A DNA stretch of 64,000 bases from Verrucomicrobiia bacterium (GCA_052146795.1 JBKQMH010000024.1:2853-66852), one strand, 5' to 3'; counted from the stretch's first letter, positions 2-34,778 are shown. Translations and numbers: made by a program. The notes: generated from the sequence alone by a model not told the origin.

Positions 2-775
2 TTTGTCACGGCGAACGCAGGCAACCTCGTTGTGGGTGGGGCATTTGTGAACCAGGGCACATTGGCGATGGCGAACAGCATGGGTACGTTCGCCGGCACG
101 GTTGTGAACAGCGGCGCATGGATCACGGACCCGACGACCAATATTTTCCAGAACACCTACACGCTCACCAGGAGCGGTTATATCCAGGCGAGCGCGGGTG
201 ACGTCTACATCTTCACGAACAATGGCAGCCAGGTGGCCAGCTTCGTGAACCAGAGCGCGCAATCGAACACCTTCAATACGGTGACCGCGAAGTTCGTCTT
301 CAATGCGACGCTGTCGCTGACGCAGACGATGTACGCCGCCGGCAGCAACATCGGCAATCTCGACGTCTCGGGCGGGTTCGACGCCGTGTTGGTCGGCGTG
401 GCGGCCACGAACGCGCTGTTCCAGTACCAGAACAACTTCGCGTTGGGCACCCTGGAGATCAGCAGCACGACGGAGGTGGCCGGCGCAGAGGTGGACGGCG
501 GCGTCGATCCCGGCGGGTTGCAATCCGCGTTGTTTGTGAATCAACTGGATCTCGATCCCGGCGCCCACCTCATCATCAGCAACGACGTCCAGATCTACTT
601 CATCTCGTCGAACACGTTCAGCTCCTCGCAGGTCACGCTGTTGGGCGACGCCGGTCTGCATCTGCTCACCAGTGACGCCAGCCTCGTCGTGCCCGAACCG
701 ACGGTTGTCCTGCTCTGGCTGAGCAGTATCGCCACGCTTTATGCAGCCCGCAAACGCGGCGCCGGCAAGAAGTAG
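2..775 (+). CDS. PEP-CTERM sorting-domain protein, 5' partial. It carries autotransporter-associated beta-strand repeats of the 'GGAFVNQGTL' type.
   Basis: The reading frame is open from the window edge. The C-terminus VPEPTVVLLWLSSIATLYAARKRGAGKK has the PEP motif, a hydrophobic helix and a basic tail. Confidence 0.8.
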   Translation, partial: FVTANAGNLVVGGAFVNQGTLAMANSMGTFAGTVVNSGAWITDPTTNIFQNTYTLTRSGYIQASAGDVYIFTNNGSQVASFVNQSAQSNTFNTVTAKFVFNATLSLTQTMYAAGSNIGNLDVSGGFDAVLVGVAATNALFQYQNNFALGTLEISSTTEVAGAEVDGGVDPGGLQSALFVNQLDLDPGAHLIISNDVQIYFISSNTFSSSQVTLLGDAGLHLLTSDASLVVPEPTVVLLWLSSIATLYAARKRGAGKK

Positions 776-826
776 GGCTGCATTTTCCTGTCGTGACAAG
801 CTTTGCTCGACGGGTAAACTGCAGCC

Positions 827-1513
827 ATGATTGATGGGCAGACCCCAAAGTGGATCGACCGGCTCGAACGCCTGATGCCGGGATTGGGAATCCCGAACCT
901 TGCCTTGTACCTCTGTGGGGCGCAGGGGCTTGGTTTCTTTCTGGTGCTGGCCAATCCGCGGGCGTTGTCGCTGCTGATTCTCGACCCAGATTCGGTGCTT
1001 CACGGTGAACTCTGGCGGCTCATCACCTTTCTGGCGGTGCCGCTGACACTCAGTCCATTGTGGATGGTGTTTGCGCTCTGGTTCCTGTACTTCATCATCA
1101 ACGGCATCGAGCAGGAGTGGGGAGAATTTCGGACGACGTTGTACGTGCTGGTTGCCGTGTTGCTCACCATTGCGTTTTCGTTTGTGTTTGGCTGCCGCAT
1201 TTGGAGCATAATCGAATTGCAATCAACTCTGTTTCTCGCGGCGGCCACGATTGCGCCCGAGTTTCAGATCCTTCTGTTCTTCATACTTCCCGTCAAAATG
1301 AAATGGTTGGCGTGGCTGTCGGTGGCATACATCATCTGGTCGCTGATTGTCGGTTCGTGGCTGGGGCGGTTGTACCTGCTGGTCATGTACGCCAATTATC
1401 TATTGTTTTTCGGGCCGTATTTCGTGGACCGGGTCAAAGCGTTTCGTCGTCGCCGGAAGTTTCAACATGACGTGGCGGCAGGAAGGGGTTCAGAGGAAGA
1501 GACGCCCGAATGA
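827..1513 (+). CDS. Hypothetical polytopic integral membrane protein.
   Basis: ATG ORF of 228 aa with about 5-6 hydrophobic segments. It is 4-nt coupled (ATGA) to the downstream aldo/keto reductase. I recognise no family motif. Confidence 0.4.
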
Positions 1514-2709
1514 CCACCCCGATGAAATACCGCCGGTTCGGGCGCACGAACCTGCAGATTCCGGTCATTTCTTGCGGCGGCATGCGCTACCAGCATTCCT
1601 GGAAAGACGAAGAGGCCGGTGGGAACACTCCCGAGGGCCAGGCCAACCTCGAAGCCACCATCCAGCGGGCGCTGGAATTGGGTATCAACCATATCGAAAC
1701 GGCGCGCGGGTACGGCACCTCGGAGGTGCAATTGGGACGAATTCTCCCACGATTGCCGCGGGAGAGGATGATCGTGCAAACCAAGGTCAGCCCGCGCGCG
1801 GACACCAGGGAATTTCTGGCCACGTTCGACCAGTCGATGAAGAACCTGCAACTGGATTACGTCGACTTCCTGGGCATCCACGGCATCAACAACGAGGAAC
1901 TCCTCGAATTTACGTTGCGTCGCGGCGGATGTCTGGAGGTCGCGCGGCAACTCCAGAAGGACGGGCGCGTCCGGTTCATCGGGTTCTCCACGCACGCAGT
2001 GCCGCGGGTAATCGCGAGGGCCATCGAGTCGGACGAATTCGACTACGTGAACCTGCATTGGTACTTTGTGAACCCGCTGAATTGGCCGTCGGTGCTGGCG
2101 GCCACGAAACACGACATGGGCGTGTTCATCATCAGCCCGAACGACAAGGGCGGGAAGTTGCAGGACCGGCCGACGAAGATGGCGGAGTTGTGCGCGCCGC
2201 TGACGCCGATGCAGTTCAATGATTTGTATTGCCTAGCCCGGCCCGAGGTGCACACGCTCAGTTGCGGCGCGTCACGCCCGACGGATTTTGACGAACACGT
2301 CGCCGCGCTGGAGTTTTGCGACCGCGCCGCCGAGGCGACCGCGCCGATTGAACGGCGGCTGCGCGCGGAGATGGAACGCGAACTCGGGGCGGATTGGTGC
2401 GCGCATTGGACCGAGGGCTTGCCGGAGTTTACCGAAGCGCCGAACCAAGTGAACATCATCGAGATCACGCGGTTGTGGATGTACGCGAAATCGCTCGGCC
2501 TCGTCGAGTGGGGCAAGATGCGTTATAACCTGCTCAGCGGCAACGGCGGGCACTGGTTCCCCGGCGAAATGGCCAACAAGGTGGAAGACGAACGCCAATT
2601 GCTGACGGCGATTGCGAAGAGCCCGTTTGCGGCGCGGATTCCACAGATCCTGCGGGAAGCGCACGCGATGCTGTACGCCGAGCCCAAGAAGCGCCTGAGC
2701 CAGAGCTGA
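1510..2709 (+). CDS. Aldo/keto reductase family oxidoreductase.
   Basis: 399-aa ORF with AKR motifs ([15 protein letters not shown]; a Y..K dyad context). Confidence 0.85.
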
Positions 2710-2719
2710 GATCGCGAAG

Positions 2720-3535
2720 TTACGAAGCCAGCGGAATCCCGTTTTCTTTTGCCACCTTGCGCAAGGCTTCTACCGCGACGCCGAAAAGAGTGGGTCCCGA
2801 GAAGCCCGAGAATTGACCGGCGGCGGCGAGGTGAGGTTCGAAGCTCAAGAGTCCGCGATAGCCGCTGGCGTAAGCGTCCTTGAGGATTTCGCCGATGTGC
2901 CCGTCGCCTTCGCCCGCGGGCACGACCTTGCCGCTGCCATTCAGGGCGTCCTTCACGTGAATGTGGACCGTGTACGGCTTAAGCAGCGGCCAGTTATCGA
3001 GCGGATTATCTCCCGCCTGGATGAAGTTGGCGAAATCGAAGGCGGCACGAAGCTTGGGCGTGTCGATGCTTCGGTGCAGATCGAGACAGGCCGGGCCGCG
3101 CTCGCCGTAAATGTCCTTTTCGTTTTCGTGGACGAGCGCCGGTCGGTATTTCAGGATGTACTCCACTTTCTTTTGCAGGCGGCGGATCACTTCCTTGCGG
3201 CCATGGGGGAACGCTTCGTAGTAACTGAAAATGCGGACGAACGGCGCATCGAAGAACTCGGCCAACTCGACGGCGATCTTGAACCGTTCGAAGTGGGGCT
3301 CGAACGGCTCGCTGAGCTTCACTTTCCCGATGGGGGAACCGATGCCGATGACGGCGAGGCCGTTGTCGGCGAGCTTGCGTTTGATCTCCGCGCGCATCGA
3401 TTTGTCGAAATTGAGGACGTTCTTGCCGGCGACGCCGCGCAATTCAATGTGCGTCACGCCGTGTTTCTTGCAGGTCGCAATCTGGACATCGAGGTCGGGT
3501 GAGATTTCGTCGGCGAACGCCGCTAGCCGGAGCAT
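2720..3535 (-). CDS. Sugar phosphate isomerase/epimerase (xylose isomerase-like TIM barrel).
   Basis: Internal ATG (MLRLAAFADEISPDLD...) chosen over the upstream extension. It overlaps the next gene by 13 nt. Sequence character is TIM-barrel family. Confidence 0.65.
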   Translation of the reverse strand: MLRLAAFADEISPDLDVQIATCKKHGVTHIELRGVAGKNVLNFDKSMRAEIKRKLADNGLAVIGIGSPIGKVKLSEPFEPHFERFKIAVELAEFFDAPFVRIFSYYEAFPHGRKEVIRRLQKKVEYILKYRPALVHENEKDIYGERGPACLDLHRSIDTPKLRAAFDFANFIQAGDNPLDNWPLLKPYTVHIHVKDALNGSGKVVPAGEGDGHIGEILKDAYASGYRGLLSFEPHLAAAGQFSGFSGPTLFGVAVEALRKVAKENGIPLAS

Positions 3536-4296
3536 ATGTGGTCTCGCGTGTATTCGAAACTTTGCTTCAAGGAAACGAACGGGTCGCCGGGGCAGGTATC
3601 CTGCTCGATGCAGAACCACTGACAACCGGCGGCTTCAGCGGCCGGGATAATCCGCGTCCAATCGAGATTGCCGTTGCCGATTTCGGCGAAGGTCACTTTG
3701 TTTTCGGTCGTCACGGTGTAATCCTTCATGTGCAGGATGGGCAACCGGTTCTTGAGGCGCTTGCACCACGCCACCGGGTCACCGCCGCCGTGCTGGACCC
3801 AGTACGTGTCGGGTTCGCCCTGCAGGTAACGCGGATCGGTTTCCTCGAAGAGGATTTCAAGGATGGGTTTGCCGGCGAGGCGACGAAACTCGATGTGATG
3901 GTTGTGGTAACAAAGCACCTGACCAGCATCATGCAACACTTTGCCTGCCGCATTGAGTCGCTTCGCAAATGATTTCACGTCGGGCAGTGTATCGAACTTG
4001 ATTCCCGCGGGCCAGGCGTAAGCGGTGAGCGCGCAACCGAGTTTCTGGAGGTGTTCGACAACGCGTCGCGGTTCGTTAAGAATCAGGTCGCTGTCCTCAT
4101 GCGTGGCGCAACACGTCAGGCCTTCGCCGTTGAGCAGCGCGACCAGTTCGCTATCGGAAATCGGCCCGAGACCGCTGAGCTGGACGGCCTGATAGCCGAT
4201 GGCGCGGATTTTTTTCAGGGTTTGCGCGATTTCGGCCGGTGTTTTGGCGAAATCGCGGACGGTGTACAATTGTGCGGCGACTTGTTTGATTTTCAT
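3523..4296 (-). CDS. Sugar phosphate isomerase/epimerase (xylose isomerase-like TIM barrel), second paralog.
   Basis: 257-aa ORF MKIKQVAAQLYTVRDF.... ATGA overlap with the upstream Gfo/Idh/MocA gene. Confidence 0.7.
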   Translation of the reverse strand: MKIKQVAAQLYTVRDFAKTPAEIAQTLKKIRAIGYQAVQLSGLGPISDSELVALLNGEGLTCCATHEDSDLILNEPRRVVEHLQKLGCALTAYAWPAGIKFDTLPDVKSFAKRLNAAGKVLHDAGQVLCYHNHHIEFRRLAGKPILEILFEETDPRYLQGEPDTYWVQHGGGDPVAWCKRLKNRLPILHMKDYTVTTENKVTFAEIGNGNLDWTRIIPAAEAAGCQWFCIEQDTCPGDPFVSLKQSFEYTRDHICSG

Positions 4297-5453
4297 CGAT
4301 GGAAAGAACCGGCGAGATCGTCGGTGACGGTACCATGCTTGCGCGGCGCACCCTTTTTGAAGCGCGACGCGGGGAATTTTTCCTGGAGGTGCTTCTCGTA
4401 AGCGGCGGCGTCCAGCGGCAGATCGACAGTTTGGTTACGGGCGGAAGAAAAGAGGATGGCATTGGCAAGCTCCACGGAATGAACGCCTTCCGGGGCTGGC
4501 GCGATCAACGGTTTGCCGTCGAGGATGGCATCGACAAAATTCTGGAGCACTTCGACGTGCTGACCGCCGTGGTCGGGAAAGGTGAGCTTCTCTTCTTTTG
4601 TGGCCGGGACAGCAAACGGCTTGCTGGCGGCGCGGCTGAACTCGGTCATGGGCGTTTCATTTTTCGTGAACAAGAGGACATCGTTTTCGAACACGAGCCG
4701 TCCGTTCTCGGCGGCGACTTCGAGGCGGTTGGTGCCGGGGGCTTCGCCCGTGGAGGCGATGAACACGGCGGTCGCGCCATCGGCGTATTCGAAGTACGCG
4801 GTCACGTCGTCCTCGACCTCGATATCGTGATAGCGGCCGAATCGGCAGAACCCGCGGACGCGGTTGGGCATGCCGAAGAGCCACTGGAACAGGTCGAGAT
4901 TGTGCGGGCATTGATTGAGGAGCACGCCGCCGCCTTCGCCGGCCCACGTGGCGCGCCAGGCGCCGAGCTTGTAATACGCCTCGGCGCGGAACCAATTCGT
5001 GATGATCCAGTTCACGCGTCGGATGGGGCCGAGCTCGCCGTGTTGGATGAGTTCGCGCACCTTTCGGTAATAGGGATCGGTGCGTTGATTGAACATGGCG
5101 GCGAAGACCTGTTTCGGGTTGTGATGCGCGGCGATGAGGCGTTCGCAATCCGCTTTGTGGACGGAAATCGGTTTCTCCACGAGCACATGCAGGCCGCGTT
5201 GCAAAGCATCGATGCCAATGGTGGTGTGATCGTAGTGCGGGGTGGCGATGAGCACGGCATCGACGGCGCCGGACCGAACCAACTCGTCGCTGCGGGTGAA
5301 ACCTTTGGCCTTCGGGAAGCGGGCGAATTTTTCCGGGGCAGGATCGCACACGGCGGTGAGTTCGCAGCGGTGGACGGCGCCGGACGATATTTTGTCGGCG
5401 TGTCCCGAACCCATGTTGCCAAGGCCGATAATTCCCAATCGAACGGATTTCAT
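4293..5453 (-). CDS. Gfo/Idh/MocA family NAD(P)-dependent oxidoreductase.
   Basis: N-terminal Rossmann segment MKSVRLGIIGLGNMGSGHA. 386 aa. First gene of a three-gene minus-strand operon. Confidence 0.85.
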   Translation of the reverse strand: MKSVRLGIIGLGNMGSGHADKISSGAVHRCELTAVCDPAPEKFARFPKAKGFTRSDELVRSGAVDAVLIATPHYDHTTIGIDALQRGLHVLVEKPISVHKADCERLIAAHHNPKQVFAAMFNQRTDPYYRKVRELIQHGELGPIRRVNWIITNWFRAEAYYKLGAWRATWAGEGGGVLLNQCPHNLDLFQWLFGMPNRVRGFCRFGRYHDIEVEDDVTAYFEYADGATAVFIASTGEAPGTNRLEVAAENGRLVFENDVLLFTKNETPMTEFSRAASKPFAVPATKEEKLTFPDHGGQHVEVLQNFVDAILDGKPLIAPAPEGVHSVELANAILFSSARNQTVDLPLDAAAYEKHLQEKFPASRFKKGAPRKHGTVTDDLAGSFHR

Positions 5454-5615: not shown

Positions 5616-6545
5616 GTGGACAACATTGCGCATGGGTTGACGGGGGCGTTGATCGGGTACTGCGGGTTTCGGCAGCGCGGGGGGAGCGAATCGGGCCGCG
5701 CGGCGCTGTGGACGTGCGTTGCGGCAGCGGAATTTCCCGACATCGATATCCTGACGGCATTCTTCGGGCGCGACACCTATTTTCGCTGGCATCGAAGTTT
5801 CACGCATTCGGCGATCCTGTTGCCGGTGTGGGCGGCGTTGGTGGCGTGGATGTTTTGGTTGATCTGGGACCGGAAGAACTACCGATTGTTATGGTGGGCG
5901 GCGGTGGCGGGGATCGCGTCGCATTTGTTGATGGATTGGCTGACGAACTACGGGACCGAATTGTTCTGGCCGTTGACCGACGCGCGGTTGGCGCTGAACT
6001 GGGTGTTTATCGTGGACGTGTACGTGTGGGGCCTGCTGCTGATCGGGACGGTGGCGGCGGTGTGGACGCAGCGCGCGTGGGTGGCGAGAGGGGCGTTGGG
6101 AGTGGTCGGGGCCTACTTTCTGTTTTGCGGAGCGTCGCGGGCGTACGCGCTGCGCGCGTACGAGGCCGGGCTGGTGACGGGAAGAACCGATGCGTTTCCT
6201 TTGCCGATGGACCCGCTGCATTGGACGATCGTGCGTGATGACGGCGTGGCGGACCATTGGACGGACGGCTCGCGCAACGACACCTTCATGCAGTTTCACG
6301 ACGACAAACTGTTGCCGAAGGCGGAGGCCACGGAAGCGGTGAAGCTGTTTCGGTGGTTCGCGGTGTTTCCGCTCGTGGAGAAAATGGAGGAGAACGGTCA
6401 CATGGTGTTGCGCTATCGCGATCTGCGGTTTCGTTCGGGGATGCCGCGGGGCGCAGTGGGAGAGGGGATGTTCGTCATCGCGAAGGTGGTGTTTGACGAC
6501 CAGGGGAACGTCGTGTGGGCCGGGCTGACGAATGGAAGGAATTGA
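5616..6545 (+). CDS. Membrane-bound metal-dependent hydrolase of the YdjM/DUF457 type.
   Basis: GTG start. N-terminus DNIAHGLTGALIG is typical of the YdjM family. Several transmembrane helices. Confidence 0.55.
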   Translation: MDNIAHGLTGALIGYCGFRQRGGSESGRAALWTCVAAAEFPDIDILTAFFGRDTYFRWHRSFTHSAILLPVWAALVAWMFWLIWDRKNYRLLWWAAVAGIASHLLMDWLTNYGTELFWPLTDARLALNWVFIVDVYVWGLLLIGTVAAVWTQRAWVARGALGVVGAYFLFCGASRAYALRAYEAGLVTGRTDAFPLPMDPLHWTIVRDDGVADHWTDGSRNDTFMQFHDDKLLPKAEATEAVKLFRWFAVFPLVEKMEENGHMVLRYRDLRFRSGMPRGAVGEGMFVIAKVVFDDQGNVVWAGLTNGRN

Positions 6546-6644
6546 TGGGCTCTTACCTCAGGCGCTCCGTTCATCAAATGTGGTTGACGAAGTCCGGGCG
6601 GGAAAGGATGATGAATTTGCGATTTGGTTTGGAGAAGCCTCTGG

Positions 6645-7736
6645 ATGGCCGCGGATTCTAGCAAACGAAGGATTCTCGTGACGGGGTCGAATGGACTGAT
6701 CGGGTCAGAGGTCTGTCTGTACTTCGCGACGCGAGGGTTTGACGTGTCCGGCGTCGACAACAACCAACGGGCGGTCTTTTTTGGTCCGCAAGGGGACACG
6801 CGCTGGAACCAAAGCCGCCTCCAGAAAGCGATCCACGATTTCCATCATTACGAAGTGGACGTGCGGGACCGGGATCGCATCGAACAGACAGTCAAGGATG
6901 TTTCTCCCCAGTTGATCGTGCACGCGGCGGCACAACCGTCGCACGACCTGGCGGCTTCCATGCCGTTCGCGGATTTCGACACCAATGCCGTCGGCACGTT
7001 GAACATGCTGGAGGCCGCGCGGCGGCACTGTCCGGAATCGCCGTTCGTCTATCTATCGACCAACAAGGTTTACGGAGACGGACCCAACACGATTCGGCTG
7101 AAGGAACTCGACACGCGCTGGGATTACGATGACCCCCGGTTTGTGGACGGGATTCCGGAGTCATTCGGTGTGGATCAGGTATTGCACTCGCTGTTTGGGG
7201 CGTCGAAACTGGCGGCCGATACGCTGGTTCAGGAATACGGGCGGTACTTCAAAATGCCGACGTGCTGTTTGCGAGGGGGCTGCCTGACCGGGCCCAACCA
7301 TTCCGGAGTGGAACTGCACGGGTTTCTCAGCTATCTGATCAAATGCAACTTCGAGGGCAAGCCCTACAAGATTTACGGCTACAAGGGCAAACAGGTTCGC
7401 GATAACATCCACTCGGAAGATGTGGCCGCGTTCATCCACGAGTTCTATTTGCGGCCGCGTTATGCCGAGGTCTACAACATCGGCGGTGGTGGTGGGAACT
7501 CGTGCTCGATACTCGAAGCGTTTGCGATGGTGGAGCAACTGAGCGGAAAGAAACAGGTTTACGAATACGTCGATCAGAACCGTATCGGAGACCACATCTG
7601 CTACTATAGTGACCTGCGCAAGATGAAGGAACATTATCCGTCATGGTCGATCACCAAGACCCTGCCGCAGATATTCGATGAGATCGCGGCCTCCTGGAGT
7701 CGACGGCTGGCTGATGGAGCTGTGGATGGCGGCTAA
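6645..7736 (+). CDS. NAD-dependent epimerase/dehydratase (extended SDR).
   Basis: [14 protein letters not shown] Rossmann motif. ATG at 6645. A TTG at 6624 is an alternative start. Confidence 0.8.
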
Positions 7737-7765
7737 TCCATGACGAAAATGGCACTGGGAGGACC

Positions 7766-9612: not shown

Positions 9613-9993
9613 CGGCGGATTTGGGGAGCAAGTGGAGCATTGCGTCCAAGACTTCCTGGAGATTTTTGCGGCGGATCACGAAGCTTCAATTTTGGCGCAC
9701 GGAATGCTGCATTCTGCAACGCATGAGATGTTCTCTCCAACATTTGATGGAATTGTGAATCAATTCAGACGCCCGCATACCGAGGAAAACACCAAGCCCG
9801 TAATAAAATCGCCCGCCCTGACTCGCGCACGAGTCCGGTCGTGGACGACGATGCTGCGTTACTGTATGGTGTGAGCCTGGACTTGCATACATGTCGCTCC
9901 AACGTGGTGACGGCATCCTCCGGTGTCGACGGCCTGAACAGGCTCATCCCCGCCAACCCGGAAGAGTACCCGTTCGCGCCGCAACGGGCCACG

Positions 9994-12893: not shown

Positions 12894-12919
12894 GGGACGT
12901 TTTCCTCCTCAAGCAACAC

Positions 12920-23616: not shown

Positions 23617-23820
23617 TCGTAAAAAGAATCCACCTTGCGTTTCCCAATTGGCCGGCGGCCACCGACCGTCGTGACCGATTGCGTCTGCATGACAATCATA
23701 GTATCACCTCGCGAGGTTCCGTCAAAAGATTCTTGCTGTTCGTAGCGTGGATTTGCGAAGGCGGAAGCCACTTCATCACCTCTACATCGACAACAGGCCT
23801 GATTCGCGCGGCTTCGATGT

Positions 23821-27439: not shown

Positions 27440-27467
27440 GGGGCGGTTGGACAATTGTTTCACTGAA

Positions 27468-28439
27468 TCACGGCATGCTCTTGCGAATCGTGGACTGCAC
27501 GGATTCTCTCGGAACGTTTTGGACATCCATCACCAGTGCCTGCAAAAGCAGTTGCAGACCTAAGATCACGGGCAATACAGCGATCATCACTGTGCCAGTC
27601 GGAGTGGGTAGGCCCGCGTGGGCGTACCACCACCAGTAGTACCCACCCCACAGAATGCCAAAAATCGTTGCCGCCAAACCCGTAACGATGAAGAGTGACA
27701 CCGCATTGAAATCCCGCACGAAGTACTGCATCACGACACGCCCCACCAGTCCCCGCAGCAGCAGGGGCGGAAACTCCAGCAGGGTACGCGTTTCGGACAG
27801 GTGGCTGACCTTCTCGTTGTAACGCGCCGGCATGTACACGTCGCGCACCACCGCGCGGTTCAAGCCCAACTCCAGCAGCATGCTGTTCTCGAAGAAAAAC
27901 CTTTTGTGGATCCTGTTTTGGTCCAGCAGCGGCAGCACGGCGGCATGAATCGCCACGTAACCGTTGTTGGGATCGAAAAGGTTCCAGTAGCCTGAAGCCA
28001 TCTTGGCCATGAACGATAGGCCGATGTTGCCCAGCCTCCGCACCCACGGCATGCGAACCAGTTCGCGGCTGTGCAGAAACCGATTTCCCTTCACGTAGTC
28101 GGCCTCGCCCAGCCGGATCGGTTCGATCAACGCGGGCAGGCCGGCCGGATTCATCTGGCCGTCACCGTCCATTTTCACCAGTACATCCGCGCCCAGTTCC
28201 AGGGCCTTGGCGAATCCCGTCAGCGCTGCCCCGCCGACACCCTGATTGTGATCGTGGCGCAGCACCACCAGCCGCTGATCGCCGACAGAGCGCGCTCGAT
28301 CCAGCGTGGCGTCGGGCGACGCATCGTCCACGACCACGATGTGGTCCACCCACGACGGCAATCCGCGAATCACGTCTTCGATGCGTTCCTCCTCGCGATA
28401 GGCAGGAATTACGATGGCAATTCGCAGATTCTGGTACAT
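27468..28439 (-). CDS. GT2 glycosyltransferase with two C-terminal transmembrane helices (ArnC/GtrB/CsbB-like polyprenyl-phosphate sugar synthase architecture).
   Basis: AIVIPAYREEERI, VVDDASPD, a DGDGQ motif, and C-terminal hydrophobic helices. Start at MYQNLRIAIV. Confidence 0.8.
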   Translation of the reverse strand: MYQNLRIAIVIPAYREEERIEDVIRGLPSWVDHIVVVDDASPDATLDRARSVGDQRLVVLRHDHNQGVGGAALTGFAKALELGADVLVKMDGDGQMNPAGLPALIEPIRLGEADYVKGNRFLHSRELVRMPWVRRLGNIGLSFMAKMASGYWNLFDPNNGYVAIHAAVLPLLDQNRIHKRFFFENSMLLELGLNRAVVRDVYMPARYNEKVSHLSETRTLLEFPPLLLRGLVGRVVMQYFVRDFNAVSLFIVTGLAATIFGILWGGYYWWWYAHAGLPTPTGTVMIAVLPVILGLQLLLQALVMDVQNVPRESVQSTIRKSMP

Positions 28440-28597
28440 GAATGTTCCGAACCTATAACAAGCGCAAACATGCAATGGAAGTGCAAAGTCTCCCCGTGTA
28501 GCGCGGCGCCTGCCGCACGACGGCTTCACGCGCTCGGAGAGGACTCAACCCTGGCTCATTACACAGGTAGAATCTTAACACAACCGGTCGCCTCTTG

Positions 28598-29791
28598 TCA
28601 TTGAGGGGACGACTCGGTAGCGAATTCGTCAAACACCGCGATCATCCGTTTCCCGAAATGGCCGTGAGTATAGTACCGCTCGAATCTTTCTTTGTTCGCC
28701 CGCCCCATGCGCTCTCGTAACTCCGGATCGTTGGCCAAATGCAGGATTTTCCCGGCCAGATCGGACGGGTTCAGTTCTTCCGCCAGCAGTCCGTTGACGC
28801 CGTCCGTGAGAATCTCACTTCGTGCCCCCCCCCGTGTGGCCACAATGGGCAAGCCCGACTGCATGGCTTCCAGCAGCACGATGCCAAAAGCTTCCAGTTG
28901 GGCCGGCGGCGGAAAGACAAGAAGGCTTGCCGACGCCAGTGTGCGCCATTTCGCTTCCCCATAAACCGCGCCAAGGAATTGGACCGCTTGGCACAGACCA
29001 TGATCCTGGAGGAATTGTTCCCCTTCCGCCTTCTCTGTCGCACGAAACCATTCGCCGGCCATGAGTAATTTGGCATCGGGACGGTGCGCCAGCACCAGCG
29101 GCATGGCCGCAAACAAGTCAAAGATCCCCTTGGTCCTTGCGAGGCCACCCAGATACAGGATCCGTAAACCAGTACGCCCTCGATCGGGTGGAGGAAGGCC
29201 GGGTTGCGGTTCAATGCCGATCGGGACTACCTTGATCCTCTGCGGCGATACAACCGCCTCGAAATCGCTGCGCAAGCACTCCGCCAACACCAGCACGAGC
29301 GCCGCGCCGCGCACGTTGGTGTCAAAGCGGCGCTGTAGTTTCGGTGAGAGGGAGTCGCGAAATCGGGACGCGCCGGATCCATGTGACCAGAGCACCACCG
29401 GCACCCTGAACGCCCTCGCCAGCCCGATGAGCACCGAGTCTTTTAAGAACGCATTGCGATTGTACGCGATTGGGTAACAGCAAAAATCGAAGCGCCGCGT
29501 CAACAGGCAGCAAAGTTCGTGGAGGAAAAACCCTGCCAGTTTCAAGAGCTTGCTGATACGAACTACCTCCAGTTCGCGAATATTGCTCACCACACTGAGG
29601 TTGATGAACGTGACGTCGAAGTGGCGTGCGAATTCCGAGCACATCAGGGTTTGATATGCGACGCTCGGACCAAACACGGGCGGCGGAAGCCAGCCGAACA
29701 GCAGGATGCGCCGTTTCCGTCCGCACGGGTTCCCTTCCCGGGGGGCCGGCGCACCGGCTTCGTTGCCTCCCGTGCATGATGATCTTATCAC
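28598..29791 (-). CDS. GT4 family glycosyltransferase (start uncertain).
   Basis: EAFGIVLLEAMQSGLPIVATRGG...DGVNGLL. The maximal ORF extends to 30058, but that extension is Arg/Cys-rich junk. A GTG at 29791 is preceded by GAGGGA and gives the GT4 N-terminus ...RRILLFGWLPPPVFG. Confidence 0.7.
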   Translation of the reverse strand: MIRSSCTGGNEAGAPAPREGNPCGRKRRILLFGWLPPPVFGPSVAYQTLMCSEFARHFDVTFINLSVVSNIRELEVVRISKLLKLAGFFLHELCCLLTRRFDFCCYPIAYNRNAFLKDSVLIGLARAFRVPVVLWSHGSGASRFRDSLSPKLQRRFDTNVRGAALVLVLAECLRSDFEAVVSPQRIKVVPIGIEPQPGLPPPDRGRTGLRILYLGGLARTKGIFDLFAAMPLVLAHRPDAKLLMAGEWFRATEKAEGEQFLQDHGLCQAVQFLGAVYGEAKWRTLASASLLVFPPPAQLEAFGIVLLEAMQSGLPIVATRGGARSEILTDGVNGLLAEELNPSDLAGKILHLANDPELRERMGRANKERFERYYTHGHFGKRMIAVFDEFATESSPQ

Positions 29792-30080
29792 AAAAAGTCG
29801 TCCCTCGAACGTTGCCAGCGCGCATCGGCCACCTTTGTTCAAGTGCGTGCGACGCGGGCAAACCTTGCTCCGTTGAGCGTGCCTCAGTTTCGCCCAAGAG
29901 GCTGGTCGTTTCAAGGAAAGAAGGCGAGGATAAGCCAATAAATCTCTGTGATATTTGTTTGCAGCAGGCGCGCGCAAAGGCGCCCTGCTGTGGCAGCACG
30001 AATTTGTGGCTTGCGACCAAGCCCAGGCGATGCGCAGCGAGTGTTTGAGCGCCATCATCTGAAGGGCGCCAAAAAAACCG

Positions 30081-31289
30081 TTGTTTAGCGAGGTGCCCAG
30101 CGGGCTGGACTTGCATCATCCGCCCTATCTGAATCTGCGGGCCAACCAGATGTTCTACGCGCTAGCGCTGCTGGCGCGTCAGATCGGGCTTGAATTGCGG
30201 CACCTCGCCAGTCAACGTTTCGATTTTGTGTTCTGCCCGGTTTCTCTGAACCGCAGCGCTTTTCTCAAGGACACAATGTTTCTCGCAATTGCCCGCGTGC
30301 TCGGCGTGCCCGTCGTGTTGTACGGCCACGGCAACAACCTCCCGGAGTTCCGCAACAAATCGCCCCGCTGGCTGCAACGCCTGATTGATTGGGCGGTCCG
30401 CGGCGCGGCGGCGGCGACGGTGCTTGGCAAATGCCTGCGGTTCAATTTTCCGGGTCATCTTCGCGAAGACCAGGTGTTCGTCGTTCCCACCGAAATCGAA
30501 GTGCCCAACCCGTCGCCTGCGGCGACGAAACCGGCCGGCCGATTCACTGTGCTCTACCTCGGCAATCCGGTGCGGGAAAAGGGTGTGTTCGTCATCCTCG
30601 ACGCGCTCCCGTTGGTGCGGGGACGTTGTCCCCAAGCCCATTTCGTCTTCGCCGGCGCGTGGTGGTCTGAAAAGGACGGCGCGGAGGCCGACCGCCTGGT
30701 GCGGGAACGCGGCCTGTCGTCCTGCGTGGAGTTTACGGGAATGGTGACGGGCGACCGCAAATGGGGAATCGTTACCCAGGGTGATGTGTTGGTGCTTCCG
30801 ACCTATTTCCGTTACGAGACGCTCGGCCTGGTGTTGCTGGAGGCGATGGGTGTTGGATTGCCCGTCATCACGACGCGGCGGGCGGCGATTCCCGAAATCG
30901 TGGAGGAGGGTATCAGCGGCCTGTTTGTGGCCGAACAGGATGCCCGCGACCTCGCCGACAAAATCATCACGCTCGCCGGCGATCCGGCCCTTCGCGCGCG
31001 CATGGAGCCTGTGGGAATGGCGCGACTTGAATCCATCGTCGACTTGGAAACGATCTCGAAAGAGCGTGACCGTCACAACACGCGCCTCGTCCACAGCGGA
31101 CGGGATAAATTACGGGCCACACCACCCGGGATTCGCGAGAACCGGGGCAAGCATTGGCTGGCGCAGACACATCACGCCAACCCGCGGACAATCCGCCGAC
31201 GCATCCCGAGCCACAGTCCCATCAGCGCCACCCCGGCCAACGTGATACAGCTGATCGTCGCGCCCAGCCGAAATGACAGCGGGACGTAG
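30081..31289 (+). CDS. GT4 family glycosyltransferase, apparently N-terminally truncated (possible pseudogene). Paralog of the divergently transcribed gene 28598..29791.
   Basis: TTG start. An in-frame TGA at 30060 lies upstream. It lacks the roughly 25-aa Gly-rich N-terminal donor-binding segment that is present in its paralog. Confidence 0.55.
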   Translation: MFSEVPSGLDLHHPPYLNLRANQMFYALALLARQIGLELRHLASQRFDFVFCPVSLNRSAFLKDTMFLAIARVLGVPVVLYGHGNNLPEFRNKSPRWLQRLIDWAVRGAAAATVLGKCLRFNFPGHLREDQVFVVPTEIEVPNPSPAATKPAGRFTVLYLGNPVREKGVFVILDALPLVRGRCPQAHFVFAGAWWSEKDGAEADRLVRERGLSSCVEFTGMVTGDRKWGIVTQGDVLVLPTYFRYETLGLVLLEAMGVGLPVITTRRAAIPEIVEEGISGLFVAEQDARDLADKIITLAGDPALRARMEPVGMARLESIVDLETISKERDRHNTRLVHSGRDKLRATPPGIRENRGKHWLAQTHHANPRTIRRRIPSHSPISATPANVIQLIVAPSRNDSGT

Positions 31290-33592
31290 CGAAACTCGAT
31301 TTCGTGGTCACCTGCAGTAACAAACACCGCTCGCATCACATAGTCGGCGCGATAGATCGGCGTGGGCGCGCCGTCAACCGTCGCGTACCAACCGGGATAA
31401 AACGTGTCCGCCAACAGCACGACCCCGGGAACGGAGCAGTGCACGCGCCCGCGCACGCGGCGCGGTGTATATTCTTCCACCTCCACTTTGCCGGCAGCGT
31501 CCTGCGACATGGCGGAGGAGGAGAGTTGGCTGCGAAATAATTCGGGCGGCTCGGTTTCGATGAACACGGTCCGGCGCGGCTCGAAAGTTGGTGCGCTCAT
31601 GGCCGCCAAGATCTGCTTTCGATCCGGCACGACCTTCCAGACAGGAAAGAACTGCATCCGTGGCAGGCACCGGTCATTGAGGTACAGACGCACTCCCTGG
31701 GCGTTCTTGAGCAATGAGAAATGGTTCGCGGGAAGCGTGACATCGTCCGGTACGAGGACATACTTGATGTTGAGCAGGTCGGCCACCGGGGTCCATTGCC
31801 CGTCGTGTTGATACGGCAGGAGGAGCAGGTCCTCCGGTTCCAGGGAGACGGCACCGTCGATGACGGATAGATGATAAGCCGTCAGGATGCCCCAGGCCAA
31901 AAAAAACCTGTCTGCACCGGGCGCCCATGGCTGCGGCTGCACGCGGAAAAGGCCGTGATCTGCCTGCACCGTCTTGATCGTTTCCAGCGGCGGATATAGT
32001 GGAAACTGTCGCAGGTCAATCTGCGGCACCACGTTTCGCCCCAGCACCGTCAAATCCGTCACGGTGGACAGTAGCAGTGCGGCAGCGAATGTATTTCGGC
32101 TCAGCCACCCGCGCACATAAGCCTGCCATCCCGCGACAACAATAACCAGAAATGTCAACGGCAGCCAGAAAACCACATTCGTGATCCGGTAGTGTCGCAG
32201 AAACAATTCCACACGGTCCAATTCCCACTGCCGATTGTGGAACGCCGACCCGCCCTCATGGCTCAAGATGTATTTTTGGCCGGCCTCCAGCAGCCGGTTC
32301 CAGTTCGCCGCAACAATCCACTGCGCGGTGAGCAGCCCAATCGTCACCATCACGCCGATCACCAGCATGCCGATCATCGTTCGACGGACGGCGCGGCTGT
32401 TCGCGGCCCGCATTTCCAGCAAAGCATCCATGCCGTAGGCCGCGATCACGCATTCGCTGAACACGACGACAATAAGGAATCGGTGATAGACAAGCCGCAG
32501 CAACGGCGTAAAGAAAATGATGACCAACACACCGCCCGATGTCAGCAGCAGCCAACGCACTGGCCGTTCTCGCACGACGAAAGCGCCGACAACAAACAAC
32601 ATACAAGGCACGATCCCTATGTAGCCGTTGAAATCAGCCATATCGGCCCCAAACGCCCTGGTCAACGAATAGGATTCCGTCGAACCGGCCAGTCCGGGAA
32701 ACATAAAGGTCAGCAGAAAGGGAATCCCCAACAGTGTGTGGCGCACAGTTGCCCCCGACCCCGCCGCGTGCAGATCACGTGTGATACCTGTAACCAACAC
32801 CTCGAGGGTCGGCAGTAATTGCACGGCGGATACGAGGATTCCCACCATCAGGACAATCCCTGCTCGTGCCACCCTGTTCGCGCGGCCGTCTGGGTTGGCG
32901 GCGAAAACCGTGCCCGCCAGGTAGCCAACGCACAGGAAACCGAGGTGCGACGAAGCCTGGATATTTCCGCAGATCATGGCCAGGCCGAGGACAACACCTG
33001 CGCCGGCTGCATATCCCCATGAGGTGCGGCGGACCGAACGCTCCACCAGCAGAAGGATCAACGGCGCCCAAGCAAACGTGCTGGGCAACCGCCAATACCA
33101 CATCAAGAACTGGCTGCTCAGCGCATAGGCAACAGCACCGACGAACGCTGCCGGGCCTGACCGTCCCAGCTCCCGCAGGAATGCGAACATCAGCACGCCC
33201 GCCAGCCACATCTCAAGTACGATCCCCAGACTGAAACCTCGTTCCGAAGACAAAAACAAATAGAGGATCTTGAACGGACTCAGCACACCATATTGGCTAT
33301 CCGCCATAAGCGGAAACCCGCCGAGTATCTGCGGGTTCCAAAGCGGAACTTCCGCGCGACGCGCGTCTTCCTGCCAAAACTTTGCATACGGGTAGTCGGC
33401 CCGCAAAATGTCGAATGTGTAGTGGTTTCGAACGTGAGCATCTTGAACCCCGGCGTCGTAGGGCGCAGTAAGTTGGTTCAACACATCGGTCGGCACCAAG
33501 CTACACCCGCGGAAAATCGTCTCGTGAAAGAAGATGATGATTACCCCGGACAACAAGGCGAGCCAGCCGAGGGTTTGCGGTCGTAATTTCAC
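31172..33592 (-). CDS. YfhO-family-like large polytopic membrane protein (putative GT-C glycosyltransferase).
   Basis: About 810 aa. Many N-terminal transmembrane segments, a periplasmic C-terminal domain and a C-terminal transmembrane helix. GTG start at 33592 (the maximal ORF runs to 33736). Confidence 0.45.
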   Translation of the reverse strand: MKLRPQTLGWLALLSGVIIIFFHETIFRGCSLVPTDVLNQLTAPYDAGVQDAHVRNHYTFDILRADYPYAKFWQEDARRAEVPLWNPQILGGFPLMADSQYGVLSPFKILYLFLSSERGFSLGIVLEMWLAGVLMFAFLRELGRSGPAAFVGAVAYALSSQFLMWYWRLPSTFAWAPLILLLVERSVRRTSWGYAAGAGVVLGLAMICGNIQASSHLGFLCVGYLAGTVFAANPDGRANRVARAGIVLMVGILVSAVQLLPTLEVLVTGITRDLHAAGSGATVRHTLLGIPFLLTFMFPGLAGSTESYSLTRAFGADMADFNGYIGIVPCMLFVVGAFVVRERPVRWLLLTSGGVLVIIFFTPLLRLVYHRFLIVVVFSECVIAAYGMDALLEMRAANSRAVRRTMIGMLVIGVMVTIGLLTAQWIVAANWNRLLEAGQKYILSHEGGSAFHNRQWELDRVELFLRHYRITNVVFWLPLTFLVIVVAGWQAYVRGWLSRNTFAAALLLSTVTDLTVLGRNVVPQIDLRQFPLYPPLETIKTVQADHGLFRVQPQPWAPGADRFFLAWGILTAYHLSVIDGAVSLEPEDLLLLPYQHDGQWTPVADLLNIKYVLVPDDVTLPANHFSLLKNAQGVRLYLNDRCLPRMQFFPVWKVVPDRKQILAAMSAPTFEPRRTVFIETEPPELFRSQLSSSAMSQDAAGKVEVEEYTPRRVRGRVHCSVPGVVLLADTFYPGWYATVDGAPTPIYRADYVMRAVFVTAGDHEIEFRYVPLSFRLGATISCITLAGVALMGLWLGMRRRIVRGLA

Positions 33593-33920
33593 TGTTCCAC
33601 CAGAATAATTGAACAGCCCCGGGAAACAAGCAAGCTTGTAGCGGGAAACCGGGCCAACGCCGTGCGCCTCATCGCGATCATCCAGTGTTGCGTGTTCTTC
33701 CCCATGCGCCACCACCGGACTCACCGGAAATCGCACGGGTGATGTGTGCTCAACTTACTCACAGGATACCCCTCAACGATGGATGCGACGCGCTGGGTTT
33801 GCACTCGGCGCCGCTGGCCAGCCTGCGCGGGGCCACCCCGTCCAACCGCAATACCTTCTCCCGCGCCAATCCGGGTTGACTACTTCGGTTCGTTGTGGTC
33901 CCTGAAAGACCCCTGCGACG

Positions 33921-34778
33921 CTAAGAACCCGCATCCGACACCGCCAAGCGAAACGTTGGATTATCCACTTCGAACGCCGTGCGCCGATCAGGCTGGGCCT
34001 GCGTGTAGATGGCGTACTGGAACGGCGACTGGCGGTAACAGCCGTGGCGCCACTTGGCGAGGCGGTGGCGCGCTGCCCACAATGGCGCGAGCACGCGCGC
34101 CCACAACGGCGCGGCGGCGCGCAAAGCCGCTTTCTCGCGGATCGCATTCGGCAGGAAGTTCATATTCTGCCCCGTGCGCGTGAACGCCGAAGTGTAGCGA
34201 CGCAGCATGGCGACGCGGACGCCTTTCTCCAGCATCCGCAACACCCACACAGCATCGCCCACGTCCCGCCATTGCGAATCGAAAAACAGCCCGTAGCGCT
34301 CCAGCGAACTGTGCCGGAAAAACGTCGCGCACGTCAGGGTCGGCAGATGACAGACCTGCACGTGACGGCGCGATGGCTTGACGATTTTGCGATACGCGAC
34401 GAACTGCCCATCGGGGCCCACCACCACCGCATCTGCGAACACCGCCTCCACCTCCGGATGCGCCTCGAAAAACTCCTTCACCGCCGCCAACGCCCCCGGC
34501 AAATACTGCTCATCGCAGTTCAGATACGCCAGCAAATCACCCGACGCCCGTCGCAGCCCGCGGTTGATCGCGTCGTACATCCCGCTGTCCTTTTCCACGA
34601 AAGCACGAACCCGTTTATCCTCCCGCAACCAATCCAGCGTCCCATCATCCGACACCGCATCCTGCACGATGTGTTCGAGCGTGACGCCACGCTGGTCGGC
34701 CACGGACGCCACGCAAAGCTTCAACCACGCGCTGTTGCGAAAACTGGGAGTGATAATCGAAAAATCCACGCCCCGCAC
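33921..34778 (-). CDS. GT2 family glycosyltransferase (soluble).
   Basis: FSIITPSFRN...DAINRGL...NCDEQY. GTG start. The ORF extends to 34979, but that extension is unlikely to be coding. Confidence 0.7.
   Translation of the reverse strand: MRGVDFSIITPSFRNSAWLKLCVASVADQRGVTLEHIVQDAVSDDGTLDWLREDKRVRAFVEKDSGMYDAINRGLRRASGDLLAYLNCDEQYLPGALAAVKEFFEAHPEVEAVFADAVVVGPDGQFVAYRKIVKPSRRHVQVCHLPTLTCATFFRHSSLERYGLFFDSQWRDVGDAVWVLRMLEKGVRVAMLRRYTSAFTRTGQNMNFLPNAIREKAALRAAAPLWARVLAPLWAARHRLAKWRHGCYRQSPFQYAIYTQAQPDRRTAFEVDNPTFRLAVSDAGS

Follow-up and report, generated by a model that had tools for sequence, protein, structure and literature searches.

Multi-component transmembrane glycosylation systems, in which a GT-A works together with a GT-C glycosyltransferase, decorate LTA, WTA, rhamnan, O-antigen and LPS (PMC8035078), and those compared with the locus described here are GtrA-GtrB-GtrV (O-antigen), ArnC-ArnEF-ArnT (lipid A), CsbB-GtcA-YfhO (LTA/WTA) and CsdAB of Lactococcus. 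For some members of the YfhO family, protein O-glycosyltransferase activity has been proven (10.1101/2024.05.05.592596). Proteins of the 'O-antigen ligase family' are the Wzy component of EPS clusters in which WecG, Wzx and glycoside hydrolases are encoded as well (PMC11340318). A further term of comparison is given by the XrtA-EpsI systems, represented by EpsB/EpsB2 of Methylobacillus, Zoogloea and Aquincola and by CrtB of Nostoc. What exosortases join PEP-CTERM proteins to, and whether these proteins carry glycans, is not yet known (PMC12188702, PMC7468200); a proposal in the literature has the exosortase link the newly formed C-terminus to some compound not yet identified (PMC7468200, PMC12188702), and PEP-CTERM proteins are enriched in glycosylation-associated residues, although glycosylation itself has never been demonstrated (PMC12188702). 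Candidate genes for this attachment/glycosylation question would come from a locus in which exosortase and protein-glycosylation machinery are truly coupled.

The locus lies in a 64 kb stretch of DNA from an uncultured Verrucomicrobiia bacterium, the whole of which is referred to as the window. Gene identities were drawn from Pfam, NCBIfam, PDB-sequence and structure searches, some 57 proteins of the window being scanned with Pfam. The window contains an extensive gene cluster for surface polysaccharide, in which a small exosortase unit is embedded; the locus is well equipped, yet broadly ordinary, because its lipid-linked-sugar enzymes most likely decorate polysaccharide and not exosortase cargo. 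Comparative genomics distinguishes three modules, namely an exosortase core, an epimerase-GT2_A unit and a GT-C module. The preferred reading, to which a probability of about 0.6 may be assigned, is that of a composite envelope-glycan locus in which the most probable acceptor of the sugars handled by the GT-C enzymes is a polysaccharide, either O-antigen-like or EPS.

The exosortase core and the PEP-CTERM protein

The single exosortase around which the original prediction was built is encoded at 12920-14074 (+): it matches PF09721 with 177 bits and TIGR02602 with 148.5 bits (cut-off 105.6), and carries the Cys, Arg and His motifs as CSGIR at 264, GNLAR at 305 and YHEW at 329. By its profile scores it is of unclassified subtype, the NCBIfam XrtA model being matched with 152.5 against a cut-off of 208. 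The gene is followed by that of the exosortase partner protein EpsI (14046-14873, +; PF11984, 65 bits; TIGR02914, 44.4 against a cut-off of 42.8) and, adjoining the latter, by that of a polyprenyl glycosylphosphotransferase (Bac_transf, PGT; 14916-16370, +; PF02397, 230 bits), the only priming enzyme detected in the window. The PGT passes the general TIGR03025 model (387 bits, cut-off 296) and stays below the XrtA-linked NCBIfam sugar transferase model TIGR03013 (193.9 against 393). The exosortase motifs, EpsI, the adjacent Bac_transf, the EPS-type neighbourhood and the presence of a PEP-CTERM protein liken the locus to XrtA-EpsI systems (PMC9850573, PMC12188702), from which it differs in remaining under the XrtA and TIGR03013 cut-offs, in the absence of PrsK/PrsR, PrsT, Wza and Wzc nearby (the Nostoc crtB locus has Wza, Wzc and Wzy) and in that cargo genes are not clustered with the exosortase. 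Such a core would cleave PEP-CTERM proteins and start an undecaprenyl-PP-linked glycan.

The exosortase-EpsI-PGT order is kept in all 11 ortholog loci of related species, with differing flanking genes, and the triad is also found in the distant locus L051; in a sister clade, the genes flanking the core encode Dpy19-like and DUF2079 membrane proteins. On its upstream side, the core is preceded in the window by the gene of a secreted 781-aa protein (9991-12336, +) of low GC content (0.51), with a C-terminal PKD domain recognized by Pfam and PDB searches. The protein is not of the PEP-CTERM kind; it is a possible glycan-processing enzyme, with counterparts 54-57% identical in loci L007 and L013 and a homologue beside a PMT_2-like gene in L026.

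The PEP-CTERM cargo gene that had been predicted is present as an ORF open at the window start (2-775, +), which encodes the C-terminal part of the protein and is the single PEP-CTERM C-terminus in the 64 kb window. Its C-terminus, VPEPTVVLLWLSSIATLYAARKRGAGKK, ends as VPEP-TVVLLWLSSIATLYAA-RKRGAGKK, i.e. a PEP motif, a hydrophobic helix and a basic tail; the assignment comes from reading these features, since no NCBIfam or Pfam model matched the ORF. The gene lies 12 kb from that of the exosortase, with unrelated metabolic genes between them, and 23-30 kb from the GT-C genes, and the last 257 residues of the protein contain 19% Ser+Thr and no Ser/Thr-rich linker.

The epimerase-GT2_A unit

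Between the cargo gene and the exosortase core, the + strand carries a YdjM-like membrane protein gene (5616-6545) and two genes for SDR sugar-nucleotide dehydratase/epimerases (6624-7736 and 7766-8836), all three assigned by Pfam and NCBIfam, which form a unit with GT2_A (8833-9612) in an order shared by loci L007, L013, L049 and L052. GT2_A is a soluble-type GT2 that, in PDB-sequence and NCBIfam searches, resembles polyprenyl-phosphate sugar synthases: its top PDB match is the Pyrococcus Dol-P-Man synthase (DPMS) 5mlz (E 7e-22), followed by ArnC and GtrB, and its NCBIfam matches (AglJ, Dol-P-hexose transferase, PgfS and ArnC) are all below cut-off. The two epimerases and GT2_A would make a polyprenyl-phosphate monosaccharide at the cytoplasmic face.

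Conservation of the unit is very high; GT2_A has more than 8000 homologues at E<=1e-30, and the top 120 clusters are 77-94% identical. This degree of identity, together with the resemblance to ArnC, the surroundings of GT2_A in L050, L052 and L055, where the nearby genes are of housekeeping or unrelated function, and the fact that it adjoins another, ArnT-like, PMT_2 GT-C gene in L049 and L051, would suit a unit devoted to a housekeeping, Arn-like modification of LPS or lipid A/core in the envelope, placed next to the exosortase with no further tie, so that exosortase core and glycan genes would be neighbours of unrelated function. Such an arrangement is rather unlikely: equivalents of ArnA, ArnB and ArnD were not found, the two SDR enzymes could be assigned to no particular sugar, and an exosortase-EpsI pair of a different subtype lies within 1-2 kb of the epimerase-GT2_A unit in L051 and L054, that is, in two of seven contexts sampled by size alone, which is seemingly above chance.

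The presence of the unit beside these other exosortases and the Dpy19-like/DUF2079 flanks of the sister-clade core could mean that exosortases and GT-C chemistry are genuinely linked in function. A more far-reaching possibility takes the recurrence of epimerase-GT2_A beside two unrelated exosortase subtypes, and its pairing with a PMT_2 GT-C, to mean that Verrucomicrobiia exosortases are wired to polyprenyl-P-monosaccharide/GT-C chemistry, so that the sugar made by the unit would be transferred in the periplasm to PEP-CTERM proteins or to the acceptor glycan of the exosortase. Decidedly unlikely as it is, it would, if true, name for the first time a definite set of enzymes by which PEP-CTERM proteins could be glycosylated or tethered, as has long been postulated.

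Genes for surface-polysaccharide assembly

The region that follows the core would form, with the GT-C genes described below, a variable heteropolysaccharide region as the third module, providing Wzx, a Wzy_C protein, four GT4 enzymes, one ordinary GT2, an acetyltransferase and a ManNAc/CapK precursor block. The flippase, correctly anticipated, is of the Wzx (MOP) type (16498-18051, +; Polysacc_synt_3 and Polysacc_synt matches, WZX_like below cut-off). It is followed by a WbbJ-/WcaF-like hexapeptide-repeat sugar O-acetyltransferase (18312-19169, -) and by the first of the GT4 genes, GT4_a, given as its longest ORF (19003-20454, -), the true start of which is probably near 20200, the homologue in L049 being of 398 aa. 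The others are GT4_b (26276-27526, -), next to a GFO/IDH/MocA sugar oxidoreductase (25182-26330, -), both from profile searches and gene calls in L001, and GT4_c (28598-30058, -) and GT4_d (30081-31289, +), recognized by Pfam; the count of GT4 genes in the 2-34778 region is therefore four and not five as originally proposed. GT2_C (33921-34979, -), a soluble WcaE/TuaG/PglI-like GT2 in Pfam and NCBIfam searches, is by these matches of the ordinary cytoplasmic chain-building type. A housekeeping gene, that of NAD+ synthetase (NadE; 21946-23616, -), is found inside the glycan operon.

The precursor block (35262-44502, +) belongs to the same cluster and, in profile searches, comprises an epimerase, a CapK-like ligase, a PHP phosphoesterase, a HisC-like aminotransferase, an ADH+GFO fusion, a 349-aa protein of no assignment, WecB and a WecG/TagA glycosyltransferase; it is syntenic and 77-84% identical in L003, L035 and L043. 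This 35-44.5 kb block, which lies past the region first annotated, had been missed, as had EpsI, the priming PGT and the acetyltransferase. Further downstream, a TPR protein and an outer-membrane beta-barrel of the Alginate_exp family (44609-47126, +; profile searches) represent a possible export route, which is absent from all 17 related loci considered below and is not conserved with the cluster.

The gene at 20202-21764 (-) encodes a membrane protein of the Wzy_C (O-antigen ligase/polymerase) family, itself matched by no Pfam or NCBIfam model. It was recognized through its homologues, most of the 72 listed carrying PF04932, and through a structure model (pLDDT 82.6), which resembles WaaL 7tpg most closely in fold (E 1.5e-5) and FtsW and RodA next; two residues, R281 and H406, do not vary among the homologues. 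On grounds of family and predicted fold, both apparently shared with WaaL, it may be a polymerase, a ligase or an O-oligosaccharyltransferase, three activities that cannot be told apart in this way. Thus, of the proposed 'Wzy_C/PglL-like' protein, the family assignment holds, indirectly, and a PglL-type acceptor is not readable from sequence.

The PGT and Wzx are parts of a Wzx/Wzy pathway, of which the Wzy_C-family protein would be the polymerase or else a ligase, and similar sets of PGT or WecG, Wzx, 'O-antigen ligase family' Wzy and glycosyltransferases, along with an acetyltransferase, secreted glycan-active proteins and a strain-level swap of the variable part, are found in O-antigen/EPS clusters such as that for Sphingomonas promonan (PMC11340318). 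The present locus differs in its embedded exosortase core and in the absence of Wza, Wzc and Wzz from window and related loci. As originally noted, no Wza/Wzc pair is encoded: no Poly_export, Wzz or GNVR match was obtained when ~57 proteins encoded in the 64 kb were scanned, and Wza/Wzc are also absent from the Pfam-labelled related loci (L003-L006 and L049-L055). The observation is true but not diagnostic, because the related loci show the same absence and an O-antigen-type pathway would do so too.

A PGT, Wzx, glycosyltransferases and a Wzy_C protein in the absence of Wza/Wzc/Wzz also amount to a PglL-type gene set, which brings in the possibility of en bloc transfer, whereby an Und-PP oligosaccharide begun by the PGT would be joined to protein by the Wzy_C protein, as a PglL-type O-oligosaccharyltransferase, or by the exosortase itself, which would pass the cleaved PEP-CTERM protein to the lipid-linked glycan. 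Precedents for the latter are sortase, which uses lipid II, and PorU, which uses A-LPS. The conservation of the exosortase-EpsI-PGT triad in all 11 ortholog loci, as well as in distant L051, speaks for such a scheme, as does the conjugation of the new C-terminus proposed in the literature (PMC7468200, PMC12188702). However, an O-antigen or EPS pathway fits the identical gene set, the Wzy_C gene goes with the variable glycan module and not with the exosortase, the protein has its best fold match in a ligase, with a sequence that does not separate ligases, polymerases and oligosaccharyltransferases, and an exosortase acceptor has been directly evidenced in no system, all of which makes en bloc transfer very improbable here.

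The GT-C enzymes and their predicted partner synthase

According to the preferred, polysaccharide-directed reading, the variable region would also supply a second polyprenyl-P-sugar synthase, GT2_B, and the PMT_2-like and YfhO-like GT-C enzymes. GT2_B (27468-28439, -), classed by PDB-sequence and NCBIfam matches, has C-terminal TM segments (ORF residues 276-332); its top PDB match is again DPMS 5mlz (E 1.4e-19), followed by ArnC and GtrB, and its top NCBIfam matches, AglJ and PpgS, are below the equivalog cut-offs. Both GT2_A and GT2_B thus resemble the polyprenyl-phosphate sugar synthase type, in agreement with the earlier count of three GT2 genes, two of this type (5mlz being the best match of each) and the third the WcaE/TuaG-like GT2_C.

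The two GT-C transferases that had been proposed are likewise found, in one case through indirect evidence. The YfhO-family protein (31172-33589, -; ~805 aa) matches PF09586 with 57 bits in its C-terminal part only, is polytopic, with at least 10 hydrophobic segments and a large C-terminal extracytoplasmic part, and has homologues of 796-809 aa labelled YfhO. The PMT_2-like protein (23821-25185, -; 454 aa) matches no Pfam or NCBIfam model itself and was identified by its homologues, some of which carry PF13231 (PMT_2), one being fused to a GT2 domain, and by a structure model (pLDDT 91), whose matches to ArnT 5ezm, STT3, AglB and Pmt4 all have a probability of 1.0 but TM-scores no higher than 0.35-0.51. 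It has no large periplasmic domain, and just past the first TM helices an invariant D76 and a nearly invariant E74 form an ExD-type acidic pair. A protein O-mannosyltransferase (PMT, GT39) was considered and rejected, given the 454-aa length, the lack of PMT or MIR domain matches in profile searches and a fold match to Pmt4 no better than those to ArnT and STT3.

Like the Gtr, Arn and CsbB-YfhO systems, the locus encodes Dol-P/Und-P-sugar synthase-type GT-A enzymes and polytopic PMT_2 and YfhO GT-C enzymes, with GT-A and GT-C genes coupled inside a polysaccharide cluster (PMC8035078); unlike them, it brings a pair of synthases together with GT-C genes, of which there are two here and three elsewhere, in one super-locus, in a diderm verrucomicrobial host, and has no gene in the window for a small flippase of the GtrA/GtcA/ArnEF type, which may be present elsewhere in the genome. 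Among the ORFs of 80-260 aa, a single one (827-1513) has three or more hydrophobic segments, and it gave no GtrA match, only rhomboid at E 0.23. Modelled on these multi-component transmembrane systems, the scheme would have the repeat unit assembled in the cytoplasm on Und-PP as its carrier, translocated by Wzx and then polymerized or ligated by the Wzy_C protein, with the GT-C enzymes adding side-branch sugars at the periplasmic face from polyprenyl-P-sugars. Sugar transfer via lipid-linked monosaccharides is well supported by inference, because two DPMS/ArnC/GtrB-like GT2 enzymes accompany two GT-C enzymes in pairings conserved across genomes. This part of the original prediction, which had PEP-CTERM proteins and/or EPS glycosylated from lipid-linked monosaccharides, stands; as to the acceptor, the evidence leans to EPS or a surface glycan and away from PEP-CTERM proteins.

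Module separation and the acceptor

Around 17 related PMT_2-like loci, neighbours within 10 kb include GT4_c (12/17), GT2_C (11/17), YfhO and GT2_B (10/17 each) and Wzy_C (9/17); exosortase, EpsI, PGT and Wzx occur in none within that distance. The MAG Bin_23R carries the GT-C module on a contig of 566 kb and the exosortase core on another, of 39 kb, and contig_15775 is syntenic over ~41 kb with no exosortase, a PMT_2 gene taking the place of the PKD-protein-exosortase-EpsI-PGT genes of the window. Locus L007 is 96-98% identical up to the PGT and has different genes directly downstream, its Wzx being only 45% identical; strain-level variation of this kind is typical of polysaccharide-antigen loci. 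Most of the apparent coupling, with the exosortase core beside the glycan region, comes from modules that can be separated and that have come to adjoin each other in this lineage. The acceptor leans to a surface glycan because the GT-C module keeps with GT4, GT2 and Wzy_C genes and in 0/17 cases with an exosortase, and because of the split in Bin_23R, the 41 kb syntenic locus and the variation of L007 past the PGT. The missing exosortase neighbours are weaker evidence than they might seem, since PGT and Wzx are also absent within 10 kb in the same 17 loci; against a polysaccharide acceptor stands the lack, in the window, of a small GtrA/ArnEF-type flippase, Wza/Wzc, Wzz and a recognizable WaaL partner.

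The protein alternative is that the YfhO-like and/or PMT_2-like enzyme uses polyprenyl-P-sugars as donors to attach single sugars, in the periplasm, to Ser/Thr residues of exported proteins, whether PEP-CTERM or others, either ahead of exosortase cleavage or following it. The YfhO-family enzymes PgfM1 and PgtC2, with PgfS or GtrB, O-glycosylate Ser/Thr-rich stretches of streptococcal surface proteins, and the present locus is similar in pairing an Und-P-sugar GT2 with a YfhO-family GT-C that would act outside the cytoplasm (10.1101/2024.05.05.592596). The YfhO protein weakly matches the NCBIfam PgfM1/PgfM2 models, GT2_A matches PgfS, and PEP-CTERM proteins are rich in glycosylation-associated residues (PMC12188702). 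By analogy with these enzymes, and from the occurrence of epimerase-GT2_A(-methyltransferase-PMT_2) units 1-2 kb from unrelated exosortase-EpsI genes in L051 and L054, this branch may be kept alive, the Dpy19-like and DUF2079 flanks of the sister-clade core adding to it. It is, nevertheless, unlikely, as the Pgf scores are far under the cut-offs (29 and 21 bits against 1400-1500), none of the 17 GT-C module loci has an exosortase within 10 kb, the exosortase core of Bin_23R being on another contig, and the constant neighbours of the module are polysaccharide-building genes. Furthermore, the one PEP-CTERM gene is remote from both exosortase and GT-C genes and its product has no Ser/Thr-rich linker, whereas in S. 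mutans the adhesin substrates of Pgf are encoded in the cluster.

As most of the coupling is a lineage-specific juxtaposition, the candidates for PEP-CTERM attachment or glycosylation narrow to two smaller, better-conserved associations, i.e. that of exosortase-EpsI with the priming phosphoglycosyl transferase and the recurrent epimerase-GT2_A(-PMT_2) unit. At the same time, a conserved ~40 kb surface-glycan super-locus with three GT-C families is documented in peat/soil Verrucomicrobiia.

Gene content of the locus

Coding frames in the window, which derives from an uncultured member of the Verrucomicrobiia and has a GC content of approximately 59%, were chosen on the basis of third-position GC, and about 57 proteins were searched with Pfam and NCBIfam. 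The tail of a PEP-CTERM protein (2-775, plus strand) is followed on the same strand by a polytopic protein of 228 aa (827-1513) and, on mixed strands, by four metabolic genes encoding an aldo-keto reductase, two xylose-isomerase-like TIM barrels and a GFO oxidoreductase (1510-5453). The plus-strand genes at 5616-18051 encode YdjM, two SDR epimerase/dehydratases, whose sugar product is not assignable from the NCBIfam and Pfam matches, the glycosyltransferase GT2_A (8833-9612), a low-GC secreted PKD protein, the exosortase (Xrt, 12920-14074), EpsI (14046-14873), a Bac_transf phosphoglycosyl transferase (PGT, 14916-16370) and Wzx. On the minus strand (18312-30058), genes are found for an acetyltransferase, GT4_a, a Wzy_C-family protein (20202-21764), NadE, a PMT_2-like GT-C (23821-25185, 454 aa), a GFO oxidoreductase, GT4_b, GT2_B (27468-28439) and GT4_c; GT4_d (30081-31289, plus strand) comes next, along with a YfhO-like GT-C and GT2_C (31172-34979, minus strand). 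The cluster extends further than originally proposed, up to 44.5 kb, with an epimerase, a CapK-like ligase, a PHP protein, a HisC-like aminotransferase, an ADH+GFO fusion, an unknown protein of 349 aa, WecB and WecG. Directly after WecG, genes for a TPR protein and an Alginate_exp beta-barrel are found (44609-47126). In NCBIfam, the 228-aa membrane protein and the 349-aa protein had no match, nor had the PEP-CTERM tail and the beta-barrel.

The gene list of the original prediction, which saw in this locus a glycosylation system for PEP-CTERM proteins and/or an exopolysaccharide, is thus mostly right, but EpsI and the priming PGT directly after it had been overlooked, and four GT4 genes are counted instead of five. 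The PEP-CTERM gene is indeed present, as the sole one in the window, separated from the exosortase by unrelated genes. Wza and Wzc, reported as missing, have no match in the 64 kb, but their absence is uninformative because every related locus with Pfam labels shares it and an O-antigen-type glycan would lead one to expect it.

Lipid-linked sugar synthases and GT-C proteins

Two of the three GT2 enzymes had been assigned to the lipid-phosphate-sugar synthase type, and the database matches agree. Among all PDB sequences, GT2_A and GT2_B are closest to the Pyrococcus Dol-P-Man synthase, then to ArnC and GtrB, and in NCBIfam their top matches (AglJ, PpgS, Dol-P-hexose transferase, PgfS and ArnC) do not reach the equivalog cut-offs. 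The proposed use of lipid-linked monosaccharides is well founded.

The two predicted GT-C transferases are also borne out, the YfhO-like protein (31172-33589) by passing the Pfam threshold and the PMT_2-like one by homologues, some of which carry PF13231, and by a confident predicted model resembling ArnT, STT3, AglB and Pmt4 in Foldseek searches. The Wzy_C/PglL-like assignment likewise holds, with PF04932 in most of the homologues listed and a confident model resembling WaaL and SEDS proteins, though its own sequence, like that of the PMT_2-like protein, had no match in Pfam and NCBIfam profile searches. For the window sequences themselves, the placement of both proteins comes from structure prediction and Foldseek only, the alignment profiles of the two having given zero matches in a search of PDB sequences. 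With hhalign, the PMT_2-like profile gave no signal against YfhO, a Dpy19-like protein or DUF2079, a putative member of the GT-C clan. One PMT_2-like homologue (P0104) carries a fused GT2 domain, for which BLASTP gave no match to any GT2 gene of the window.

Separability of the exosortase core and the GT-C glycan region

The exosortase was surveyed with one genome per species, yielding 11 orthologous loci in Verrucomicrobiia (65-96% identity), which were compared by tblastn with all window proteins. The Xrt-EpsI-PGT triad is kept in 11/11, the upstream YdjM-epimerase-epimerase-GT2_A-PKD set only in the two closest relatives; in the remaining nine loci, the PMT_2-like, YfhO, GT2_B and Wzy_C genes were found in none within 10 kb (tblastn). 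In the 96%-identical relative (L007), identity remains at 96-98% through the end of the PGT gene, after which gene content differs: an epimerase gene, genes for two unknown proteins and a Wzx gene with no more than 45% identity are found there. Such a switch in gene content is typical of surface-polysaccharide antigen loci. In a sister clade (loci L008, L009, L012 and L015), the triad has other flanking genes. It is preceded by an SBP_bac_5 solute-binding gene and by one for a Dpy19-like protein of the membrane (PF10034, 64 bits), the latter also found upstream of the core in two further loci (L016 and L017), and is followed in the same orientation by genes for an epimerase and for a membrane protein of the DUF2079 family, so that different putative GT-C families adjoin the same exosortase. 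In two loci (L010, 15881-17443; L012, 13794-17238), inserted restriction-modification genes separate the PGT gene from the epimerase gene that follows, which marks the 3′ end of the PGT gene as a recombination-prone boundary.

The reciprocal view was obtained by collecting contexts of the PMT_2-like gene through exact look-ups and a metagenome scan, leading to 17 loci longer than 15 kb, a few of them near-duplicates. Near these homologues, GT4_c is found in 12/17 loci, GT2_C in 11, YfhO and GT2_B in 10 each, and the Wzy_C protein and CapK in nine each; Xrt, EpsI, PGT or Wzx occur within 10 kb in 0/17. Furthermore, the GT-C module and the exosortase core of MAG Bin_23R lie on separate contigs, of 566 kb (L004) and 39 kb (L016), respectively, and on contig_15775 two loci (L049 and L003) together span approximately 41 kb syntenic with 6.6-42.6 kb of the window, where the PKD protein-Xrt-EpsI-PGT segment gives way to two small genes and a PMT_2 GT-C. 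Thus, the exosortase core can be separated as a unit from the glycan region with the GT-C genes, the two happening to sit together in this lineage.

The GT2_A unit

Homologues of GT2_A are found in more than 8000 database clusters at E ≤ 1e-30, the best 120 of which are 77-94% identical, an unusually high conservation. In the sampled contexts, seven homologue loci (L049-L055) picked solely for the length of their contigs, an SDR epimerase is always ahead of GT2_A. A PMT_2-type GT-C adjoins it in L049 and L051, the two copies being 44% identical to each other and that of L051 scoring slightly below the Pfam threshold, and a PMT_2 gene lies 5 kb away in L053. An exosortase-EpsI pair is found 1-2 kb from GT2_A in L051 and L054 (one divergent, one co-directional), with exosortases of a different subtype (31-38% identity to that of the window); near GT2_A in L050, L052 and L055, neither a PMT_2 GT-C nor an exosortase-EpsI pair occurs. 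The recurrence of GT2_A by exosortases is the strongest argument for a link between exosortases and lipid-linked monosaccharides, within a small sample of seven loci, of which L051 and L054 may be kin. Two small leads are worth following up, namely the Xrt-EpsI-PGT triad, which is invariant, and the recurrence of the epimerase-GT2_A(-PMT_2) unit by exosortases.

Possible pathway and acceptor

The analysis itself shows the families and folds of the enzymes, which residues are conserved and how the genes are linked. From established knowledge, the Bac_transf enzyme would start an Und-PP-linked glycan, the GT4 and GT2 enzymes would lengthen it in the cytoplasm, Wzx would flip it and the Wzy_C-family protein would polymerize or ligate it. 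The GT-A synthases would make polyprenyl-P-sugars, to be used by the GT-C enzymes outside the cytoplasm for decorating glycopolymers, as described for GT-A synthase/GT-C systems (PMC8035078). Judging by the genes conserved around those for the GT-C enzymes, the default acceptor would be the polysaccharide. Family membership would be compatible with protein acceptors too, given that Ser/Thr-rich regions of proteins are glycosylation targets of the YfhO-family enzymes PgfM1 and PgtC2 (10.1101/2024.05.05.592596); for PEP-CTERM proteins, glycosylation or attachment to a glycan is so far only a proposal (PMC12188702, PMC9850573, PMC7468200).

Accessory genes

The PKD protein (9991-12336; secreted, 781 aa) lies in a low-GC island (51% versus 59%). 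Relatives in which the flanking genes reach 91-98% identity share only 54-57% in this protein, possibly a glycan-active enzyme that evolves fast or was replaced horizontally. Its N-terminal 640 aa contain an EILNEP motif reminiscent of GH5, yet this assignment was set aside, being unsupported by any model or PDB sequence. In one related locus (L026), a PKD-protein homologue adjoins a PMT_2-like gene.

The 228-aa polytopic protein, 52 bp after the PEP-CTERM gene, has a weak rhomboid match (E 0.23) and a WR motif; the GxSG catalytic motif is absent and no family match was obtained. NadE (21946-23616), a housekeeping NAD+ synthetase, is embedded in the glycan operon of the minus strand, with the Wzy_C gene on one side and the PMT_2-like gene on the other, and is missing from the corresponding position in related loci. 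The TPR protein, which is YbgF/CpoB-like, and the Alginate_exp barrel were considered as an export pair and rejected; they occur in 0/17 related glycan loci, which makes their link to the cluster doubtful.

The block at 36291-42644, comprising the CapK-like ligase, the PHP phosphoesterase, the HisC/CobD-like aminotransferase, the ADH+GFO fusion and the 349-aa protein, is 77-84% identical across genomes (L003, L035 and L043), far above the glycosyltransferases; its product is probably an amino-alcohol or amide substituent of an unusual kind.
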